Virus record (IMG/VR): IMGVR_UViG_3300046167_000733
Span: 1 to 64,000 of that record
DNA from: a virus
Reading direction: 5' to 3' (one strand)
Length of the DNA: 64,000 nt
Part shown: positions 2,862-26,866 of the stretch, one piece after another
Numbering within the stretch: the first letter of the stretch is position 1
Layout: each line of letters begins with the position of its first letter
The notes under the pieces: generated by a model
The model's input: only the letters and a program-made list of their open reading frames with translations
Database searches by the model: none
What the model was told of the DNA's origin: nothing
Program-made: the position numbers and the translations under genes

Positions 2862-2923
2862 GGGTTGGTCGCCTAATAGACCCGTGAGGTGACATGGTCA
2901 GCACCTCTTTCCTTTCGAGAGTG

Positions 2924-2953
2924 GGGACATCTTAATTGGTGTCCCTTTTTTTT
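2924..2953 (+). terminator. intrinsic terminator
   Basis: GGGACATC-TTAATT-GGTGTCCC hairpin followed by T8. Confidence 0.85.
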
Positions 2954-2974
2954 GTGTTTGTAGGATATAATATG

Positions 2975-2982
2975 TATAAATA
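2975..2982 (+). promoter_or_regulatory. T4-type late promoter for the csgF/csgG/cyclase operon
   Basis: Exact TATAAATA directly before the ATG at 2988. Confidence 0.75.
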
Positions 2983-2987
2983 GGAAT

Positions 2988-3269
2988 ATGGACGCGGTAT
3001 TTACATTAATAAAAGAACTTGGTTTCCCTGTCGCAATGGCAATGATAGGTGGGTTCTTTATGTTTCTTACACTAAAATATATTATGGAAGGTGTTATTGG
3101 ACAAGTAAAAACCCTACATAGTATTACAGGTGCATTAGATAATCGTGTAAAGACTATGAACCACGATATGATAAGGATTGATACAACACTATGTGTCATA
3201 CTTGGATTGAGACCAGACCTTGACAGGATATCAAGGGCAGACGGAAAGAACGACGCAAGAAGAGATTGA
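2988..3269 (+). CDS. small TM + coiled-coil protein (GFP motif, YvrJ-like)
   Basis: LIKELGFPVA + TM + heptad-like tail. Confidence 0.7.
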   Translation: MDAVFTLIKELGFPVAMAMIGGFFMFLTLKYIMEGVIGQVKTLHSITGALDNRVKTMNHDMIRIDTTLCVILGLRPDLDRISRADGKNDARRD

Positions 3270-3271
3270 TT

Positions 3272-3514
3272 ATGGATGAGATAGTGAACGCGGTAAAGGA
3301 CTTTGGGTTTCCCATAGTTGCCGCAGTTGGAATGTTATATATGATTTACTTTGTATGGAAAACCATTACAGAGGAGATTGAAGCAAAGTTAGGTGACGCG
3401 CACGTTACCCTGATTGGACTTATTGATAGAATAAGAATGTTAGATAACGATATCATAAGACTACAACAGAAGTTAGATACCTGCGATAGAGATGAAGAGA
3501 AAACAAGATGAATA
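3272..3514 (+). CDS. small TM + coiled-coil protein, paralogue of the previous gene (probable +1 error near 3480)
   Basis: AVKDFGFPIVA + TM + LIDRIRMLDNDIIRL aligns with LDNRVKTMNHDMIRI of 2988. Confidence 0.7.
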
Positions 3515-3993
3515 GAGACGATATACTAGATAGAATAAAATACTTCTTTGGAGGTTTGATTATTGCGTGGTTGTTAGTCGCAATACAGAATACGAGTGCT
3601 TGTGCCGCACCTATAGACCATAGGTTCAAGTCACCTTCATTCAATGGACAGAATACATCAAGTCATTACCTAACGATTGAGAACCAAGAACGAACTCGTA
3701 AAGATGCGTTGGAACAAGAGATAGAAGATGCCTTAGAAGAAGCGGCAAGGGAAGCAGAGAATACTACCCTCGCAAGGTTTCTGAGAAACGTGGAGAGTAG
3801 GATTTATTCTACACTCTCAAGACAGTTAGTGGATAGCATGTTCGGAGAAGACCCATCAGATACAGGTGAGTTTTTTGTGGATGGCGCAGGGATTAGTTAT
3901 GTCGTCGATGGCGATAAAGTGGAGTTAACAATTACAGATGAATTCGGGAATGTTACGGTCATTGTTATTCCTATTGGGAATTTTGGTATCTAG
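3508..3993 (+). CDS. csgF: curli assembly protein CsgF-like
   Basis: Signal peptide, then HRFKSPSFNG (CsgF F.F.NP.FGG motif); LARFLRNVESRIYSTLSRQL; C-terminal V.LTITD..G..T.I.IP. Confidence 0.8.
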   Translation: MNRDDILDRIKYFFGGLIIAWLLVAIQNTSACAAPIDHRFKSPSFNGQNTSSHYLTIENQERTRKDALEQEIEDALEEAAREAENTTLARFLRNVESRIYSTLSRQLVDSMFGEDPSDTGEFFVDGAGISYVVDGDKVELTITDEFGNVTVIVIPIGNFGI

Positions 3994-4759
3994 TTGTTCA
4001 AGTCTTGGTATTGAGGAAATCACACTAAGACAAACAGTAGAAGATGCCCAAGTCCAACAAGAGTTACTCTCAGAGAAACTCAAGAATGTTGGAGAACCCG
4101 TTAGGAAACCTTCGGTTGCGATTTATTCGTTTACTGATAAGACAGGACAAAAGAGACAGACAAGTAGTGGTGGTACTTCATTTAGTTCTGCCGTTACACA
4201 AGCACCAGATACTTATCTGATACGCGCGTTGACTCGTGCGGGGAATGGTAAGTTTTTCAAGGTGGTTGACAGGACTCAACTTGAGTCGTTGACAAGAGAA
4301 AGACAACTTATAAGACAGACTAGAAGTTCTTATGAGGGGGAAGGTGCAAAGAAACTACCTGCATTGACTTTTGCGGGTATGATTATTGCAGGAGGTATTG
4401 TGGGTTACGACCACAGTATCGAATCAGGCGGTGATGGTGCGAGGTATCTCGGTATCGGTTCATCGCGTGAGTTTAGTCGTGACACGGTGACTATAAACAT
4501 ACGATTGATAAGTGTCGCGACGGGTGAAGTTTTACTTGATGTAATAACAAGTAAGACTATTTTGTCTACTGCCATTGGCGGTGACATATTTCGTTTTGTA
4601 GAACAGGGTACTAGACTTGTTGAGGTTGAGTCTGGTGTTGCCCGTAACGAGAGTGTTTCGATTGCAACTCAACGTGCTATTGAGACAGGGGTTTTAGAAC
4701 TTATTATTCGGGGAAAAGATAAAAAGTACTGGACTTTAATTAAAGATATAAGAGGATAA
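3950..4759 (+). CDS. csgG: curli secretion channel CsgG (outer-membrane lipoprotein)
   Basis: Lipobox LVSSC; VAIYSFTDKTGQ, FSSAVTQ, LTRERQLIR, GGDGARYLGIG, TGEVL motifs of CsgG. Confidence 0.9.
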   Translation: MLRSLLFLLGILVSSCSSLGIEEITLRQTVEDAQVQQELLSEKLKNVGEPVRKPSVAIYSFTDKTGQKRQTSSGGTSFSSAVTQAPDTYLIRALTRAGNGKFFKVVDRTQLESLTRERQLIRQTRSSYEGEGAKKLPALTFAGMIIAGGIVGYDHSIESGGDGARYLGIGSSREFSRDTVTINIRLISVATGEVLLDVITSKTILSTAIGGDIFRFVEQGTRLVEVESGVARNESVSIATQRAIETGVLELIIRGKDKKYWTLIKDIRG

Positions 4760-4763
4760 TCTA

Positions 4764-5492
4764 ATGGCGATTTTTAAAAATATCGTTTTTGTTATGATGT
4801 TTTTACTGCCTAGTTTTGCGTTCGCGCAGGACAATGAAATCTATATAGACCAATCTGGTGCGGGTGTCACAATCGATATCACACAAGATGGTTCTGGTAA
4901 CAAAGTGGGTGGTTCAGATACTGACTCAACTAAAATGCTAATAAGTGGTGATAATATTGCCCTTAGTATCGATGCGGTTGGAACAGGTAACGACGTGATT
5001 GGTAATATTGTTGGAGACAATAATAGTGTCGATTTAGATGTTGTTGGTTCAACAAACGCAATCAATCTAAACATTGATGCGGCAGATGTATACGGTTCAA
5101 CAGGGGGTTCATTCAATCTAAACCTTGCTGGTTCTGGTAATAATGTTGACCTTGATGTTGCAGGAAATGACCAAGCAAACAACGCAGACTTTGATTGGTT
5201 ACTTGATGGGGATTACAACACCCTTGATTTTGATATCGACGCAAACGACTATACAAGTGAAATGGATATCATAGGTGACAATAATACTTTGACAGTAGAT
5301 GTCGATGGGTATGATGGTCACAGTATGAATATAGATGGTTCGGGTAGTTATTGGGATGTCACTATTGACCAACAATCAACATTACAAACCGATAGTTTGG
5401 AGATAGATTTCAATGGTTCTGGAACAAGTACGACACCTGCTACGATTTGTATTAGTCAGTCTGATTCTGGTACTGCCACAGGTTGCAACTAG
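4764..5492 (+). CDS. secreted curlin-like (CsgA/CsgB-like) beta-solenoid repeat protein
   Basis: Sec signal ending AFA; about 11-aa periodic I.Q/V.G..N repeats (NEIYIDQSG, IDITQDGSGN, NIVGDNN, DVVGSTN, NLAGSGNN); very acidic; terminal Cys pair. Confidence 0.7.
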   Translation: MAIFKNIVFVMMFLLPSFAFAQDNEIYIDQSGAGVTIDITQDGSGNKVGGSDTDSTKMLISGDNIALSIDAVGTGNDVIGNIVGDNNSVDLDVVGSTNAINLNIDAADVYGSTGGSFNLNLAGSGNNVDLDVAGNDQANNADFDWLLDGDYNTLDFDIDANDYTSEMDIIGDNNTLTVDVDGYDGHSMNIDGSGSYWDVTIDQQSTLQTDSLEIDFNGSGTSTTPATICISQSDSGTATGCN

Positions 5493-6542
5493 TCTAGAAG
5501 ATATAGGTGCTGTTGACCGCGCAGTCGGTTGGCGACAGGTAGTAAGAGAAACAAAAGAGTTAGAACCCAACAAGGGTTTTGACGTTATATCAAACGATGA
5601 CCTTCGTACAGGTGACGGACGAATGCAAGTACGTTTCGTTGATGACAGTAAACTACGGATGACAGAACATACCCGTATCGTCATTGACAATGTTGTGTTC
5701 GACAAAGACCCAAGTAAGTCAGACCTTGCTATGACCTTTGCCCAAGGAACTGCCAGATTTATTTCTGGTGGACTTGGTAAGGTAGACAAAGAGAATATCA
5801 GACTCAAAACTCCGACTGCCACGATTGGTATCAGGGGTACAGATTTTACAGTTACTGTAGATGAGTTTCGGTAAGAGTCTTGATTGTTCTCCTTCCCGAC
5901 ATAAACGGAGTATCCTCTGGTGAGATTATTGTATCCACTATGGCAGGGGAAGTTGTTCTCAATAAACCTTTTGAGAGTACAACGACAACTCTATTTGAAT
6001 CACCACCTTCCAATCCTGCTATCCTAAATTTGAGTTTGGATATGTTGAACAACATCATGATAATAAATCCACCAAAGGAAGAACAGACCTATGCTGACTT
6101 TATGGATACACTCAACGAAAAGAAGAATATAAATCCTCTTGATATTGACTTCCTTGATGAAGCACTATTAGATGAAGACGAACTTGACAGAGACTACCTT
6201 GAGTTTACAGAATTAGATGTAGACTTTTTGAATGTTGATTTCTTACAAGACCTTCTTGATGATTACTCTGACATACTAGATGACAAAGGTTTCCTTAGTG
6301 ATGAACAGAAAGGTGGCGACCTACGCATAGAAGGAACTGAAGAGGGATTTGACACTACTACACAGTTCAACACAATCGTAGATGCCAAGGAAGTAAGACT
6401 ACTTAGAAATGTAAATGATATTGTTGACATAAGTACTGATGTAGAACAATCTACTAGAATAATATATGAGAGTGATGGAATAGAGTTTGACGACATCGTA
6501 ATAAATGGTGGTCAATCTACAACACTAACGATAAAGCAATAA
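5413..6542 (+). CDS. periplasmic FecR-domain protein with acidic C-terminal extension (frameshift near 5867)
   Basis: Signal peptide; D.LRTGDGRMQVRFVDDSKLRMTEHT and LKTPTATIGIRGTDFTVTVDE FecR motifs; removing one T joins the two ORFs. Confidence 0.8.
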
Positions 6543-6543
6543 T

Positions 6544-8369
6544 ATGAAAAACTGGCACGTACTCGTAACACTCGGACTACTTTTACTAGTGAGAATATCC
6601 GACCCATTTATGTTAGAGAGTGCTAGGTTATCTTGGTTTGATGGATTACAGAGAGACCAAGAACCTACTAAGTCAGAACAGATTGTTCTCGTAGATATAG
6701 ACGAACCTACACTGGAGAAGTTAGGGTCAGTATCCTATACCAAGAGATATCCTAGCAGAATATATTGATGAAGCACCAGAGGCACTTATTGGATTGAATG
6801 TCTTGTTATCAGAAGAAGACAGGTTCGGAGGAGATGCCGCACTCGCATCAGCATTGTCCTGGAAGAATAGTGTCCTTGCTATAACTCCTTCAAGTAAAAC
6901 GAATACAAAATACAGACCACCACAAATTGGTACTGCTACATTCGGAGAGAAGGACGCAACGGACTTCCTACCAGAACTCAACGGAATGTTATTTGCGAGA
7001 GAAGAACTTCACGACGCATCACTAGGATATGGTACAATATCTTCATCACGAGATGTGGACGGAATACTACGACGCGCACCTCTACTTGAATACTTTGACA
7101 ATAGAATATATCCCGCATTCGCATTAGATATACTCAGGGTTGCGGCAGGAGATATCTCATATCAAATCAGTCACAGACGATTATGGTATTCAGTTTGTTA
7201 GGATACCTGCCTTCAAGAACATACCTACAGATATAAACGGCAATGTTCAGATAGCATTCTGGAATCAGTTCGAACGATATTCCTTTACAGATATAGACAA
7301 GATACCCGAAGGAAGTATTGCGATAGTTGGTGCGACCTTTGAGGGAAGTCCTGTTGTAACAACTCCTATCGGTAATATGTATCCACACGATATTCAAGCA
7401 AACCTTATCAAGACGATGATAGATGGTGTTGTCATAACAAGACCAGACGAGTTCTTTATATACGAACTTCTCTTTACACTGGTTGTATCTTTACTACTTC
7501 TCTTTGCTCTTGTCAAGTTATCGATATGGGTATCAGGGGTGGGATTTGTTGCGATATCTGTTCTGTCTGTAATGGGTGCTACATCACTCTTCACTAAATC
7601 GTATCTATTGATTGACCCTGTGTTCCCGTTACTCGCATTACTACTTGTATTCTCACACGGAAGTTTCGTTCAGTTCTATACTCAGTTCAAACTAAAACAA
7701 CAAATCAAAGCACAGTTCGGAACCTACCTAGACCCAAGACAAGTCGAACAACTTCAGAAAAATCCAGACCTATTGAAGTTAGGTGGAGAGAGACGCGAGA
7801 TGTCTTATATGTTTACTGACATTATTGGGTTTACTCCTATATCAGAACACTATAAGAACAACGATGACCCCGAAGGATTATGCGAACTTATAAATGAATA
7901 CCTAGATGAAGTCACTCAAATCGTTTTGAATAATGGTGGTATGATTGACAAGTTCATGGGCGACTGCATAATGGCAGTATTCTCCGCACCTATTGTAATG
8001 GAGAACCACGCAGAGATGGCAGTCAAGTCTGCTATAGAGATAGAACAGAAGACCCTTGAACTCAAGAAGTTATATAAAGAACGAGGACTACCCGATATAA
8101 ATGTTGGGACAGGGGTGAATACTGGAACCGCAATCCTTGGTAACATGGGTAGTAGTACACGATTTGATTACTCTGTAATTGGTGATGCCGTCAATCTTGC
8201 GGCACGATTAGAAGCAACTGCGGGTAGAGGAGACTATAAAGACACTCCAACAATCTATTCATCATATACAAAAGACCTCTTACCCGACACAATAAAGTCT
8301 GTCAAGATAGGCGATATCAAAGTCAAGGGTAAAGAAGAACTCATCGAAATATACTCCCCACAAAAATAA
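6544..8369 (+). CDS. CHASE2-domain, multi-TM class III adenylate cyclase (frameshifts near 6725 and 7169)
   Basis: N-terminal TM, IVLVDIDE CHASE2 start, three TMs, then FTDIIGFT, IDKFMGDCIMA, GVNTG, DYSVIGDAVNLAARLE. Both metal Asp, substrate Lys/Ser and transition-state Asn/Arg are present. Confidence 0.9.
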
Positions 8370-8393
8370 TATCCTTATTATTAAAATAAGTGC

Positions 8394-8422
8394 TTGACTT
8401 TCTCTGTTGTTTGTGATATACT
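8394..8422 (+). promoter_or_regulatory. sigma70-type early promoter
   Basis: TTGACT-17-TATACT with TGn. Confidence 0.8.
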
Positions 8423-8457: not shown

Positions 8458-9420
8458 ATGGCACATGAACTAGAAATCCGAAAAGGTAAAGCACAAATCG
8501 CATATGCAGGGGATGTCCCTTGGCATGGTATGGGCACAAAGGTAGATTCAAATCTAACTCCCGCAGAGATACAAATCGCGGCAGGTCTTGATTGGGATGT
8601 CCAAAAAGAAACGATGACAACATCATCTGGTGTTGAAATCAAAGGAAAGAAAGCACTCGTTCGTTCGGGTGACAACAAAGTCCTTGATGTAGTTGGAGAC
8701 AACTGGAACCCTGTTCAGAATGACGAAGCATTTGAGTTCTTCTCAGAGTTTGTCAATGCAGGTGATATGGAGATGCACACTGCAGGTTCACTGAAAGGTG
8801 GTAAGATGGTTTGGGCACTTGCGAAAGTGAAGGAATCATTTGATGTACTGAAGGGTGACCAAGTTGATTCATATCTCTTGTTCTCAAATCCTCATATGTA
8901 TGGTAAGTCAATTGATGTTAGGTTCACACCTATCCGCGTTGTATGTAACAATACATTATCTCTCTCACTGGAGATGTCATCTGCTAACGCAACTAAGATG
9001 TCACATCGTAAGGTCTTTGACCCAAGTGAAGTAAAAGAGACTATGGGTCTTGCACACGACAAGTTTGAGAAGTTCAGAGAGACTGCTCAGTTCCTTGCGT
9101 CACGTCAGTTCAATAGTGACTCACTTATAAAGTATTACAATGAAGTGTTCCCAAGAACATACAAAGGTAAGACTGAAGTGAAAGTCAAGTCTGTTGAAGA
9201 CCTAACCAACAATGCAAAGAAAGCATATGACCTTCTTGGTACTCAAGCAGGTGCAGAGTTTGGTAAAGGGTCTTGGTGGTCTGCATTCAATAGTGTGACT
9301 TACTTCACTGACCACGAGATGGGTCGTAATGCGGATACTCGTTTATCCTCTGCATGGTTTGGTGCGAACCAGACACGCAAAGTGAAGGCACTGGAGAAAG
9401 CAGTGGAGTTTGCACTGTAA
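8458..9420 (+). CDS. DUF932 / TIGR03299-family phage protein
   Basis: PWHGMG, AGLDWDV, VQN.EAFEFF, TAGSLKGGK.VW, FTPIRVVCNNTL motifs. Confidence 0.88.
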   Translation: MAHELEIRKGKAQIAYAGDVPWHGMGTKVDSNLTPAEIQIAAGLDWDVQKETMTTSSGVEIKGKKALVRSGDNKVLDVVGDNWNPVQNDEAFEFFSEFVNAGDMEMHTAGSLKGGKMVWALAKVKESFDVLKGDQVDSYLLFSNPHMYGKSIDVRFTPIRVVCNNTLSLSLEMSSANATKMSHRKVFDPSEVKETMGLAHDKFEKFRETAQFLASRQFNSDSLIKYYNEVFPRTYKGKTEVKVKSVEDLTNNAKKAYDLLGTQAGAEFGKGSWWSAFNSVTYFTDHEMGRNADTRLSSAWFGANQTRKVKALEKAVEFAL

Positions 9421-10508
9421 TGTTGAAATCAAAAGTAAATACAAATGAAATCACTGACGAACTCAGTAAGGATTTTGATTACGAGTTTGATGGGACAACA
9501 GAGTTTCAACCTCCTGTCATCACATCACTTGATAGAGCAACTTACCTTGATAAGGAGTTCTCTATCGGGTTGATAGTGGGTGCAAGTGGTTCGGGTAAAT
9601 CAAGTCTTCTCAAAGAGTTTGGAAAAGAAGAAACCATTACTTGGAATGGAGACGAAGCAGTTTGTTCTCATTTTGATAATGCAAAAGATGCAAGAGAACG
9701 ACTAAGTGCGGTTGGATTCAATTCAATCCCTGCTTGGATGCGACCTTATCATCTACTCTCTAATGGAGAACGATTTAGGGCAGACCTCGCGCGTCGTTTG
9801 AAAGACAACGCAGTAATAGATGAATACACATCTGTGGTGGATAGAAATGTAGCAAAGAGTTGTTCACACGCAACTCGTAGATACATAGACAAAAAAGGAA
9901 TCAAGAATGTAATCTTTGCAACTTGTCATTATGATATTGTTGAATGGTTACAACCTGATTGGGTCTATGATACTGCTACAGGTCAGTTCACCACAAGGGG
10001 GTCTCTTCGGCAACCCGAAATCAGTTTGGAAATATTACCTTGCACAACAAAGGCGTGGAAGATGTTCCGCGACCATCACTATCTCTCAGGAGACCTCAAC
10101 CAAAGTTCACGGTGTTATCTCGGAATCTGGAACGACATCATTGTGGGATTTAATGCAGTGATAACAAATCCAAGTGGCACTCTCAAACACGCATGGAGAG
10201 AACACAGAACTGTGATACTTCCAGACTTTCAAGGTCTTGGTTTAGGTACTCGTTTCTCTGATGCGATTGGTGAGATTATGTTGGCAGAAGGTAAGAGATA
10301 CTTTTCAAAGACTGCTCACCCAAGATTGGGAGAGTATAGAGAGGTATCACCTAAGTGGAGACCTACGTCACATAACAAAAAGGCAAGAATGGATTACCTA
10401 AACAGACCGAATGATAACAAATACAGTGACACCTTGAGGTCGAAACATAAAAACCGAATATGTTTTGCTCACGAATATATAGGTGAAAAAAATGAATTAT
10501 TTACTTGA
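9420..10508 (+). CDS. ABC-type ATPase fused to a GNAT-fold acetyltransferase
   Basis: Walker A GASGSGKS, signature LSNGE, Walker B VIDE, H-switch ATCH; C-terminal HHYLS and RTVILPDFQGLGLG acetyl-CoA motif. Confidence 0.85.
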   Translation: MLKSKVNTNEITDELSKDFDYEFDGTTEFQPPVITSLDRATYLDKEFSIGLIVGASGSGKSSLLKEFGKEETITWNGDEAVCSHFDNAKDARERLSAVGFNSIPAWMRPYHLLSNGERFRADLARRLKDNAVIDEYTSVVDRNVAKSCSHATRRYIDKKGIKNVIFATCHYDIVEWLQPDWVYDTATGQFTTRGSLRQPEISLEILPCTTKAWKMFRDHHYLSGDLNQSSRCYLGIWNDIIVGFNAVITNPSGTLKHAWREHRTVILPDFQGLGLGTRFSDAIGEIMLAEGKRYFSKTAHPRLGEYREVSPKWRPTSHNKKARMDYLNRPNDNKYSDTLRSKHKNRICFAHEYIGEKNELFT

Positions 10509-12325: not shown

Positions 12326-13004
12326 ATGTTTATACACGAATCAGTAAAACTCACAGAGATGGATGCCGTCACAACCGAGAAGGGTCGTAAATATCGTACA
12401 CCCGAAGGTGTTGACTTGCCCTCTATCACAACAGTACTTTCAATCCTGTCAAGAGATAGTATTGCGAAGTGGCGTAAGAGAGTAGGAGCAAAAGAAGCAA
12501 ACCGTATCTCTGGTAAGGCATCGGGTCGTGGTACTCGCGTTCATGAGATTACCGAGAAGTATATTGACAATAACCCTAACTACAAAGAAGGGTACACCCC
12601 TGATATCATTCATTCCGTTCAATGTGATGAAACCAATCCTTGATGGATTTATTGGTAAGGTCTATGCTCAAGAAGCACCTCTGTATTCCAATCACCTTGG
12701 AGTTGCAGGACGAGTTGACTGCGTTGCTGAGTTTGATGGAGTACTATCCATCATCGACTTCAAGACCTCAATGAAACCTAAGAAGAGAGAATGGGTCAAG
12801 AACTACTTTATGCAGGAAGCGGCATATGCCATAATGTGGGAAGAACGTACAGGTCAACCTATCACTCAACTTGTCACTATCATATCAGTAGATGGCAAAG
12901 ACAAACCACAAATCTATGTAGAACATCGTGATAACTGGATAAACACTCTGAGAGACACAATAAAAAAGTATAATGAGGAAAACTCTAGTTCCGTTTTGTT
13001 ATAA
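12326..13004 (+). CDS. PD-(D/E)XK exonuclease (frameshift near 12615)
   Basis: LPSITTVLS, RGTRVHE, AGRVDCV, IIDFKTS, YFMQ.AAYA motifs. Confidence 0.85.
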
Positions 13005-24808: not shown

Positions 24809-24882
24809 GGTGGTTCTGAAGATGTGGAAAAGTATAAGTAGTACTACCCCCAAAAAATAAATATGTGTCCTATGGAGATGAA

Positions 24883-26866
24883 ATGACAGTGAAGATTGAC
24901 CGCAAGAAAGATAAACTATTAGCGGATTATGCGGTAGGGATGTTGAAAGATTTCTACCTTAGAGGTAATGAGAAAAGTCCCCAAGACGGATTCAAAAGGG
25001 CATCAGAGGCATGGAGTAAATACCGAGACGAGATAGACGACGAACTCGCACAACGTCTTTATAATTATGTGTCACAGAAGTGGTTCATGTTTGCGTCTCC
25101 AGTATTGTCCAATGCACCTAACGGAACTGGTAAGAGTAAGGGGATGCCTATCTCTTGTTTCCTTACCTATGTTCCTGATACACTTAGAAGGACTTATTGG
25201 TCACACTTCAGAACTTAGATGGTTATCCGTTTATGGTGGAGGTGTCGGTGGTCATTGGTCTGATGTAAGAACAGTATCTGACATTGCTCCTGGACCCATG
25301 CCATTTCTTCATACCGTAGACGCAGATATGATTGCATACCGACAAGGTAAAACTCGTAAGGGTTCCTATGCGGCATATATGGATATCTCTCATCCCGACA
25401 TACTTGAGTTTTTGAATATGCGTATTCCTACTGGAGACGTACAACGTAAGGCATTGAACCTACATAACGCAATTAATATCTCTGATGAGTTTATGACTGC
25501 GGTAGTAGAAGGTACAGACTTTGACCTACGAGACCCCAAAGACAACTCAGTAAAAGAAACTATTGATGCTCGTAAACTCTGGGAAAGAATACTGGAGACA
25601 AGATTTAGAACAGGGGAACCTTATCTAAACTTTATTGATACTGCCAACGCAACTCTACCACAACCCCTCAAGGATTTAGGTCTCAAGATAAATGGTTCGA
25701 ACCTTTGTAATGAGATACATCTACCTACGAGTGCCGATAGAACTGCGGTGTGTTGTTTGAGTTCTCTCAATCTAGAGTATTATGATGAGTGGAAAGATAC
25801 ACCTATCATTCGTGACCTCGTAAGAATGCTTGATAATGTATTGGAATACTTTATAGAGAAAGCACCCGATACTATTACTCGTGCGAAGTATAGTGCTCAA
25901 CGCGAAAGGTCTATTGGTCTTGGTGCGATGGGTTTCCATAGTCTCTTACAGAAACACGGAGTTGCGTGGGAGAGTGAAGCGGCAAGAGATATCAATACGA
26001 CTGTGTTTGAACATATCAATAGAGAAGCACACGCAGAAACAGAGTTACTCGCAGAAGAACGCGGTGAGTATCCTGATGGTATCGGTAGTGGTAAGAGAAA
26101 CTCTCACTTACTTGCGATTGCTCCTAATGCGTCCTCTGGTATTATTCTCAGTACAAGTCCTTCTATAGAACCTCTAAAGGCAAACGCATATACGCATCGT
26201 ACACGGGCAGGTTCCTTTCTCGTAAAGAATAAGTATCTTACACAACTCCTTGATGAGAAGGGTGAGAATAACGATTCAAACTGGACTTCTATTATTACAA
26301 ACAAAGGTTCAGTACAACATCTACCTTTCTTTACGGAAGGAGAGAAGTCAGTATTCAAGACCGCACAAGAGTTAGACCAAATGTGGGTAGTAAAACATGC
26401 CGCAGAAAGACAAGAGTTTATATGTCAAGGTCAATCGGTCAATCTATTTTTCCCATCAGGGGCAGACAAGTCTTATGTAAATAAGGTTCATCTATCCGCG
26501 TGGAAGAAAGGTCTGAAAGGATTATACTATCTACGAACAGAAGCAAAACAACGTGCTGAGAATGTATCGGAGAAAGTAGAAAGAGTTGCCCTTGAGGGTG
26601 ATAAAAGAAATGTAGTCTATGGTAAGAGAAACTGCCCATATTGTCAACTCGCAAAAGAGGAGATGAAGTTGCGCGGTATACCTTATGACTATGTTGATTT
26701 ACAAGAGGTAGGTAAGACTGCCAGAGAAGTAACAGGTCGTGATGTCAAAACTGTACCACAGATATATATCCAAGGAGACTATATCGGTGGGTATGATGAC
26801 TTTATGATTTGGTTAGAGAAACCCTTTGAGAGTGACGACGGAGAATGTCGTGCTTGTGAAGGTTAG
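24883..26866 (+). CDS. nrdA: class Ia ribonucleotide reductase alpha subunit with fused glutaredoxin domain (indel near 25188)
   Basis: PISCFL, SNLCNEI, VCCLSSLNL, APNASS, KGLYYLR; Grx CPYC/TVPQI/IGG; terminal ECRACEG. Confidence 0.93.

Follow-up and report, generated by a model that had tools for sequence, protein, structure and literature searches.

A viral curli-type secretion module carrying a FecR-domain protein and a CHASE2 adenylate cyclase, with a possible origin of its regulatory arm in alphaproteobacterial adhesin-linked systems

The window analyzed here is a stretch of 64,000 nucleotides (nt), i.e., the first 64 kb of the linear IMG/VR viral contig IMGVR_UViG_3300046167_000733 (107,776 bp; completeness estimate 65%). 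Close to its 5' end, seven abutting or overlapping genes on the + strand, together with a terminator hairpin and the late-promoter-like motif TATAAATA, span positions 2923-8369. This locus represents the viral type VIII secretion (curli) module, already published for T4-like marine phages of the pelagimyophage or Melnitz type. Regarding its function, the reading that we put forward, at roughly even confidence, is that the published curli core has been fitted with a sensory or regulatory arm, made of a FecR-domain protein and a CHASE2 cyclase, that was grafted onto it from an alphaproteobacterial adhesin-linked CHASE2 system. Trans-envelope signaling by the operon, as proposed in a first-pass annotation made from the letters of the window, is a plausible and still unproven hypothesis. 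What is new in the present analysis is the bacterial context of the CHASE2 cyclases, the architecture of the FecR-domain protein and the finding that the histidine kinase label given to two proteins of the module lacks Pfam support. The seven genes are as follows, L004 being a closely related viral contig in which the interrupted genes are intact:

2988..3269, + strand: small membrane protein 1, 93 amino acids (aa); phrog_18771 at 8e-32
3266..3511, + strand: small membrane protein 2, about 80 aa; phrog_18771 at 3e-23; extra T at 3482, intact form at L004:6010-6252
3508..3993, + strand: CsgF homologue with a signal peptide; PF10614 at 3.2e-14, phrog_35372 at 1.5e-39
3938..4759, + strand: CsgG outer-membrane lipoprotein channel; PF03783 at 2.5e-45
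4764..5492, + strand: putative secreted curlin-like repeat protein, 242 aa, with a signal peptide and strongly acidic; assigned from a family hidden Markov model (HMM) and an AlphaFold2 (AF2) model
5413..6542, + strand: FecR-domain protein; PF04773 at 4e-12, phrog_37870; broken by extra bases at 5866 and 5879, intact form at L004:8150-9277 (375 aa)
6544..8369, + strand: CHASE2 class III adenylate cyclase; phrog_35576; broken by extra bases at 6724 and 7168, intact form at L004:9279-11111 (610 aa)

Conservation of the module in marine viruses

At least 314 IMG/VR contigs carry a relative of the cyclase, and 80 of them were fetched; synteny was counted over the loci with enough flank, i.e., at least 7 kb upstream for the cyclase-seeded ones. 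Both small membrane proteins, CsgF, CsgG, the repeat protein and the FecR-domain protein were encoded in all 41 cyclase-seeded viral loci (41/41), and the cyclase was found in 27 of the 27 CsgG-seeded loci. Every part was also retained in the rearranged distant variants (L126-L128 and L130), so that the linkage of the FecR and cyclase genes to csgFG, on which the first-pass annotation had built its operon, holds across the related viruses. The same annotation pointed to csgF and csgG in marine T4-like phages. Pelagibacter phage HTVC008M (gp011-gp019) and Methylophilales phage Melnitz (gp97-gp104) are annotated with a matching gene order, and their modules are like that of the window in genes, in order (33-55% protein identity) and in marine origin.

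Its claim of novelty goes too far, since the whole cluster was already published in 2022, FecR and the cyclase being named there among its putative regulators (Wittmers et al., 2022; PMC9599517). According to these authors, the module comprises one or two "histidine kinases" (HK), CsgF, CsgG, CsgA/B, FecR, often a second CsgA/B, and an adenylate cyclase. It was reported from podo- and myovirus pelagiphages, at all 65 GOV2.0 stations and with matches in metatranscriptomes, and an alphaproteobacterial origin was inferred for it; FecR, the "HK" and the cyclase, which are not in bacterial curli operons, were proposed to regulate the system (PMC9599517). No later experimental work on the viral curli module was found in the literature searched. 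The clade of the window differs from most other viral clades by the lack of the second curlin-repeat gene between FecR and the cyclase, and the gap between these two genes amounts to about 250 nt in this clade versus 1,000-2,100 nt elsewhere.

Integrity of the reading frames

In the window, the FecR gene is read in two frames and the cyclase gene in three; the second small gene is shifted as well, at its 3' end. The operon is nevertheless intact in nature, and these breaks are assembly errors. Alignment to two related contigs, L004 (98.4% DNA identity to the window) and L005 (93%), located single extra bases in the window at 3482, 5866, 5879, 6724 and 7168, all five of which are absent from both contigs. 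Each of the frameshifted genes forms one open frame in L004, in L005 and in 24 further relatives. Besides, contigs from three independent assemblies (two of DNA metagenomes, one of a metatranscriptome) were one base shorter at exactly those sites, and at site 6724 the extra base was absent at full depth in all three independent runs. A further raw-read run (X21) gave 7 matching reads and added nothing. Public runs matching the stretch numbered 20, from 15 studies: 14 DNA runs contained 81-86% of its words, and six metatranscriptome runs contained 31-46% of its sampled words, one of these (X15) having been aligned to it; the metatranscriptome matches already published (PMC9599517) are in line with this. 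The intact form is hence common in the sea.

The explanation that the operon is decaying, with real frameshifts and with FecR and the cyclase as pseudogenes in this phage, has in its favor that the window itself reads as broken. It is effectively excluded, because the extra bases are absent elsewhere and because essential genes of the same record are equally split. The large subunit of ribonucleotide reductase is divided between 24865-25218 and 25067-26866, and the exonuclease of phrog_298 between 12326-12643 and 12528-13004, with an extra base at 12615 inside the break. When compared with near-identical contigs, the window shows roughly one unpaired single-base insertion per kb (positions 458, 826, 2946 and 12615 among them), and every such difference is an extra base on the side of the window. 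A frameshift in any gene of this record should be taken first for an assembly artefact.

CsgF, CsgG and the curlin-like repeat protein

The identities that the first-pass annotation had given to CsgF and to the lipoprotein CsgG are well founded. For CsgF, the PF10614 match covers profile positions 2-132 of 132 and an F-K-S-P-S-F-N-G motif lies at the N-terminus; no sequence match was obtained in the PDB. CsgG aligned with E. coli CsgG (3x2r/6l7a) at 1.5e-39 over residues 14-267, with both the lipobox Cys and the Phe of the constriction loop in register.

The third member of the core, i.e., the repeat protein, was upheld in part. Its signal peptide is present, and the AF2 model is an all-beta solenoid (predicted local distance difference test, pLDDT, 82; predicted template modeling score, pTM, 0.79), while the family alignment displays motifs of the QxGxGN type. 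A direct match to the Pfam curlin repeat (PF07012, Curlin_rpt) was not obtained even at E up to 5. A Foldseek search of the model against the PDB found nothing at E 1e-3 or below; the CsgA fibril of E. coli (8enq) came up only at E 1.2. The HMM of the viral repeat family did match csgFG-adjacent proteins at the seven closest alphaproteobacterial loci of the type VIII secretion system, with E down to 4e-14, and seven of these matches, from five loci, were scanned and all carried strong PF07012. At the level of sequence, the kinship of the repeat protein with curlins is thus transitive only, running through the viral HMM and the PF07012 proteins.

Compared with bacterial curli systems (E. coli and the alphaproteobacterial csgF-csgG-curlin loci), the phage shares CsgG, CsgF and a putative substrate of the curlin type, and differs by the lack of CsgE and by a substrate too diverged for a direct Pfam match. 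Neither this record nor four other phage records gave a match to PF10627 in a search for CsgE that did recover its E. coli control. It is also absent from alphaproteobacterial curli systems (PMC9599517). Relative to the seven closest bacterial csgFG loci, FecR, the cyclase and the small membrane proteins belong to the phage module only.

The FecR-domain protein

The AF2 model of the intact FecR-domain protein (375 aa) consists of four segments: a signal helix, a beta domain (residues 32-191, pLDDT about 88), an acidic linker of about 95 residues modeled at low confidence, and a C-terminal beta domain of about 70 residues ending in I-x-I-x-Q. The net charge of the linker ranges from -19 to -30 in most relatives. 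The model of the N-terminal domain resembles the periplasmic cell-surface signaling domain of PupR (6ovk) with a Z score of 14.9, and its first half superposes on a "cell surface anchoring domain" (5ix9) with a Z score of 7.3 (root-mean-square deviation 2.4, 73/76 residues). This FecR domain begins about 30 residues past the signal-peptide-like helix, with neither a cytoplasmic anti-sigma domain nor a transmembrane (TM) helix ahead of it. As there is no space for an anti-sigma domain, the phage protein is not a regulator of the FecR type. No RTX repeats were detected in it by the Pfam scan.

The I-x-I-x-Q ending is common to the FecR-domain and curlin-like proteins and remains a resemblance of a short motif only. 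Across clades, the acidity of the FecR linker and that of the curlin-like protein were seen to co-vary: both were strongly acidic in pelagiphage-type clades (net charge -19 to -39) and near neutral in a divergent clade (L123, L130 and L132). Such co-variation could reflect co-adaptation to one channel or mere shared composition.

The CHASE2 adenylate cyclase

As read from the hydrophobic segments of the sequence, the cyclase is laid out as a TM helix, a periplasmic CHASE2 domain, three TM helices and a catalytic domain. In the intact L004 protein, CHASE2 (PF05226) was matched at 5e-35 over residues 10-317 and Guanylate_cyc at 3e-17. Alignment with Pseudomonas aeruginosa CyaB (3r5g) showed that both metal-binding Asp residues and the Lys, Asn and Arg are conserved, with Ser in place of the CyaB Thr, the catalytic residues lying within FTDIIGFT, IDKFMGDC and DYSVIGDAVNLAARLE. 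The full catalytic set with Lys/Ser specifiers, which the first-pass annotation had read from the interrupted gene, was confirmed in this way. These residues fit an ATP-using class III enzyme; for its predicted ATP specificity and synthesis of cyclic AMP (cAMP), the Lys/Ser pair is the sole pointer.

The two small membrane proteins

Small membrane protein 1 has a single, N-terminal TM helix, a coiled coil and a conserved tail, RPDLDRI..RA..DARRD. It is a paralogue of small membrane protein 2 (23% identity), each being built of one TM helix and a charged coiled coil. Although the published description of the viral module calls these two proteins histidine kinases (PMC9599517), no kinase domain was found here. 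Small membrane protein 1 matched no Pfam family, including HisKA and HATPase, and among 24 members of the family (80-120 aa) no kinase family was matched at E up to 1, the Pfam scan giving scattered matches at chance level. At 80-120 aa, they are too short for an ATPase domain. The "HK" label was rejected accordingly, with neither HisKA/DHp nor HATPase_c detected.

In the protein Atlas, small membrane protein 1 occurs in viral clusters only. The family is large in metagenomes, with at least 8,000 proteins at E 0.001 or better, all of them unnamed. Some relatives reach 150-200 aa and may be fusions of both paralogues.

Transcription signals of the operon

The signals that frame the operon in the first-pass annotation, i.e., an upstream terminator, a late-type motif at 2975 ahead of the seven-gene run and a promoter at 8394 behind it, were all found again:

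2923..2950, + strand: intrinsic-terminator-like hairpin, G+C-rich and followed by a T-run, closing the upstream unit (a transfer-messenger RNA, tmRNA, gene and a small open reading frame, ORF)
2975..2982, + strand: T4-type late-promoter-like motif TATAAATA, its sole copy inside 2900-8400
8394..8422, + strand: sigma-70-like promoter, TTGACT-17 nt-TATACT with a TG extension, belonging to the next transcription unit and marking the downstream boundary

The late-type motif is enriched in the window, with 17 copies versus 5.5 expected, a number never reached by shuffles. Of 48 distinct relatives, 25 also have it 5' of the first gene, where it usually begins 13-16 nt ahead of the ATG. In the window, the first-gene ATG is at 2988 and the motif ends 5 nt ahead of it, as in many relatives. 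Hairpins with a T-run like that at 2923-2950 likewise precede the first gene in many relatives, often just before the motif. Sigma-70-like matches inside the operon were at chance level (28 versus 20.7 +/- 4.8 expected).

Bacterial relatives of the cyclase and FecR proteins

Alphaproteobacteria supply most of the 80 closest cellular relatives of the cyclase (27-34% identity). None of their loci (0/80) contained csgG, csgF, the repeat protein or the small membrane proteins within 10 kb and, reciprocally, FecR or a cyclase was present in none of the seven closest alphaproteobacterial csgFG loci (0/7). Hence, the phage combines two units which, among the bacteria searched, occur apart: a curli secretion core, and a pair of FecR and CHASE2 cyclase that in bacteria goes with surface adhesins. 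In the three bacterial genomes containing the cyclase loci L154, L139 and L174, no counterpart of the viral CsgG protein was found.

By comparison, a FecR-domain ORF lay within 10 kb in about 30 of the 80 bacterial cyclase loci, in about 15 of them as a direct neighbor. In Bradyrhizobium and its relatives, the gene directly 5' of the cyclase encodes a protein of 1,200-2,000 aa, in which an N-terminal FecR domain is followed by cadherin-like and Big_9 modules; two of six such proteins carry RTX repeats too. Other neighbors of the cyclase combine FecR with RTX, with a TbpB-like part or with collagen, or consist of FecR alone. A LapG-type protease gene (PF06035, 5e-17) is divergent from the adhesin gene and adjoins it in the Bradyrhizobium lablabi locus L154. 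Homologues of this protease were found in 12 of the 80 cyclase loci, in four of them directly beside the cyclase; no such BTLCP protease was found in the window or in 130 viral loci.

A set made of a BTLCP protease, a giant FecR-cadherin/RTX adhesin and a CHASE2 cyclase recurs at L154:4003-12175 and at L159, L171, L172, L135, L136, L141 and L144. The retention of Lap-type adhesins involves LapA, LapG and LapD, and is the basis on which these FecR-RTX adhesin loci are compared here. The recurrent set suggests that CHASE2 cyclases monitor a Lap-like system of adhesin retention. No description of this arrangement of protease, FecR adhesin and CHASE2 cyclase was found in the literature searched. 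The FecR-headed RTX adhesins and LapG-type proteases beside CHASE2 cyclases may bear on the long-sought ligand or partner of CHASE2. The Bradyrhizobium loci are like the phage operon in that the protein encoded beside the cyclase has an N-terminal FecR domain and a remainder that is a surface or secreted module. They differ from it in their RTX/cadherin part and BTLCP protease, both missing from the phage, where export would use CsgG rather than a type I system.

Two characterized systems offer further comparisons. A LysM-FecR gene beside a CHASE2 histidine kinase gene forms a conserved operon, known as "BiofilmReg" in Burkholderia and as PA4035/PA4036 in P. aeruginosa (PMC5192318). As in the phage, a periplasmic FecR-domain protein is encoded beside a CHASE2 sensor; there, however, the output is a histidine kinase with a response regulator, the partner carries LysM and no secretion channel is included. 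In Sinorhizobium meliloti, an external protein signal passes via the outer-membrane protein NsrA to the CHASE2 cyclases CyaD1, CyaD2 and CyaK, leading to cAMP (PMC13001267), and the locus tag of the FecR-domain gene smc02177 is next to that of cyaD1 (PMC5498481). This system shares with the phage a CHASE2 class III cyclase of the alphaproteobacterial type and a neighboring FecR-domain gene. Its output goes to the Crp-type regulator Clr, of which no equivalent was found in the six phage records searched, and NsrA is a beta-barrel, not a CsgG. For CyaD1, deletion of CHASE2 is reported to result in constitutive activity.

Proposed function and competing explanations

From these data, we infer a channel formed by CsgG and CsgF, with the repeat protein as its substrate and the FecR-domain protein as a periplasmic component associated with it. 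Late in infection, CsgG and CsgF would form an outer-membrane channel in a host that has none, and the acidic curlin-like protein would be exported through it to fold into a beta-solenoid on the cell surface. The FecR-domain protein would serve as a component of this channel rather than in iron regulation: its folded FecR domain would be kept in the periplasm, while the acidic linker of about 95 residues and the C-terminal beta domain would engage the channel or pass through it. Such an acidic tail may engage the channel, the lumen of which is predicted to be positively charged in Melnitz CsgGF (Buchholz et al., 2022; PMC9004378). In the inner membrane, the CHASE2 cyclase would read the state of the periplasmic assembly and set the cAMP level, and the two small membrane proteins would be inner-membrane partners specific to the module, not kinases.

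The layer-by-layer interpretation of the first-pass annotation is therefore kept in part. The picture fits the predicted topologies of the parts and finds indirect support in bacteria, where FecR genes do neighbor CHASE2 sensors and S. meliloti offers a precedent for the activation of CHASE2 cyclases from outside the cell; the claim is weakened by the points discussed below. Of the refuting conditions named in the first-pass annotation, the two computational ones (loss of synteny with csgFG, and real frameshifts) both turned out in favor of a functional operon. A more specific version, which we consider rather unlikely, is that of an outside-in sensor. In this version, the FecR-domain protein would sit at the periplasmic mouth of CsgG with its acidic tail threaded to the surface beta-solenoid, and a pull on this tether, its loss or its occupancy (through cell contact, a superinfecting virion or jamming of the channel) would be passed to CHASE2 and cAMP, and from there, via the small proteins or a host receiver, to a late decision such as the timing of lysis. 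In this sense, the FecR-headed RTX adhesins beside the closest bacterial CHASE2 cyclases would have their equivalent at a curli channel.

Several points weigh against a sensory arm of this kind. In S. meliloti, SMc02177 is a target of the signaling cascade and is not needed for the perception of the signal (PMC5498481). FecR is present in all viral curli modules and the cyclase in many but not all (PMC9599517). From these FecR-bearing modules without a cyclase, cAMP is probably an added output and not the core function. A receiver is also missing, as no cyclic-nucleotide-monophosphate (cNMP)-binding protein was found in six phage records (this record and five others with the module), where a non-canonical receiver is possible. 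As for the tether, the Z score of 7.3 between the first half of the FecR domain and 5ix9 is a value within the range of common structural arrangements. The profile-profile comparison of the FecR-domain and curlin-like proteins gave no similarity (probability 0.5%), which leaves an exported, curlin-like C-terminus of FecR just a guess. Finally, the late timing is predicted from the motif. In T4, transcription starts about 6 nt after the late-promoter motif. By this rule, a motif ending 5 nt before the ATG implies a leaderless or almost leaderless mRNA for the first gene.

One competing explanation, already proposed, is that the module produces curli-like amyloid fibers at the surface of infected cells, either to aggregate them ("sibling capture") or to shield them from superinfection, with FecR, the small proteins and the cyclase only regulating expression via host factors (Zaragoza-Solas, 2020; Wittmers et al., 2022; PMC9599517). 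We regard it as possible, although the balance of the evidence leaves it a minority candidate. CsgG, CsgF and a putative curlin-type substrate are all conserved, and a second curlin-repeat gene stands between FecR and the cyclase in many relatives; only one curlin gene is present in the clade of the window, however, and neither CsgE nor a cNMP-binding protein was found in the phage records searched for them. Melnitz cultures did not clump, as seen by cytometry or transmission electron microscopy (PMC9004378). Besides, a late promoter allows little time for transcriptional feedback, and fiber production does not explain why a protein with a periplasmic FecR fold is universal in the module. A further idea, raised in PMC9599517, is that of uptake: CsgG would form an ungated pore, in line with the lack of a CsgE match, through which cofactors, iron chelates or small macromolecules enter to serve phage replication, FecR then being related to iron. 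This is very improbable, since the FecR-domain protein has only a signal peptide and a periplasmic fold, with no cytoplasmic anti-sigma part and no TM helix, and since uptake leaves both the cyclase and the conserved secreted repeat protein without a role.

A role in lysis timing was also considered. According to a published proposal (Buchholz et al., 2022; PMC9004378), CsgGF of Melnitz and the pelagimyophages may be a gated secretin or a pinholin. The pore would then be a gated breach of the outer membrane or a pinholin-like element, the small proteins would act as a holin/antiholin-like pair, and gating of the timing would fall to the cyclase and FecR. The module does lie behind a late-promoter motif, the small proteins each have a single TM helix and a charged coiled coil, and weak matches to the holin family phrog_4898 occur among them (7e-5 for small membrane protein 2; 9 of 24 family members, best E 1e-4). 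These matches, however, are confined to one paralogue, and the nearest named Atlas family for small membrane protein 1, YvrJ (0.89), is a lead only and was not relied on. No endolysin adjoins the small membrane proteins, the endolysin gene lying about 27 kb away, and an outer-membrane pore does not depolarize the inner membrane. Moreover, small membrane protein 1 was found in 6 of 50,697 phage records, all six also encoding CsgG. A family confined to curli-module phages and absent from other T4-like phages is not the general holin of this phage group, and we consider this explanation unlikely.

Phages of SAR11-type and OM43-type ocean bacteria, which are abundant, carry the module; it takes up several per cent of the phage genome and gives infected cells an envelope machine that is absent from their hosts. 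The proposal of a channel-bound FecR tether with a CHASE2 reader would make a descriptive "auxiliary gene cluster" testable, either with the two cultured phages or in E. coli.

Flanking genes

A permuted tmRNA gene of the alphaproteobacterial type lies directly 5' of the operon:

2118-2530, + strand: permuted alphaproteobacterial-type tmRNA gene; RF01849 at 1e-21, RF04321 at 6e-17

A further copy of TATAAATA is located at 2141. In Melnitz, a tmRNA gene likewise stands 5' of the curli module. On the other side of the operon, behind the sigma-70-like promoter, positions 8458-10508 of the window (+ strand) encode a phrog_1221 protein and a phrog_11143 protein with an ABC-ATPase-like stretch, whose reading frames share an overlap of 66 nt.

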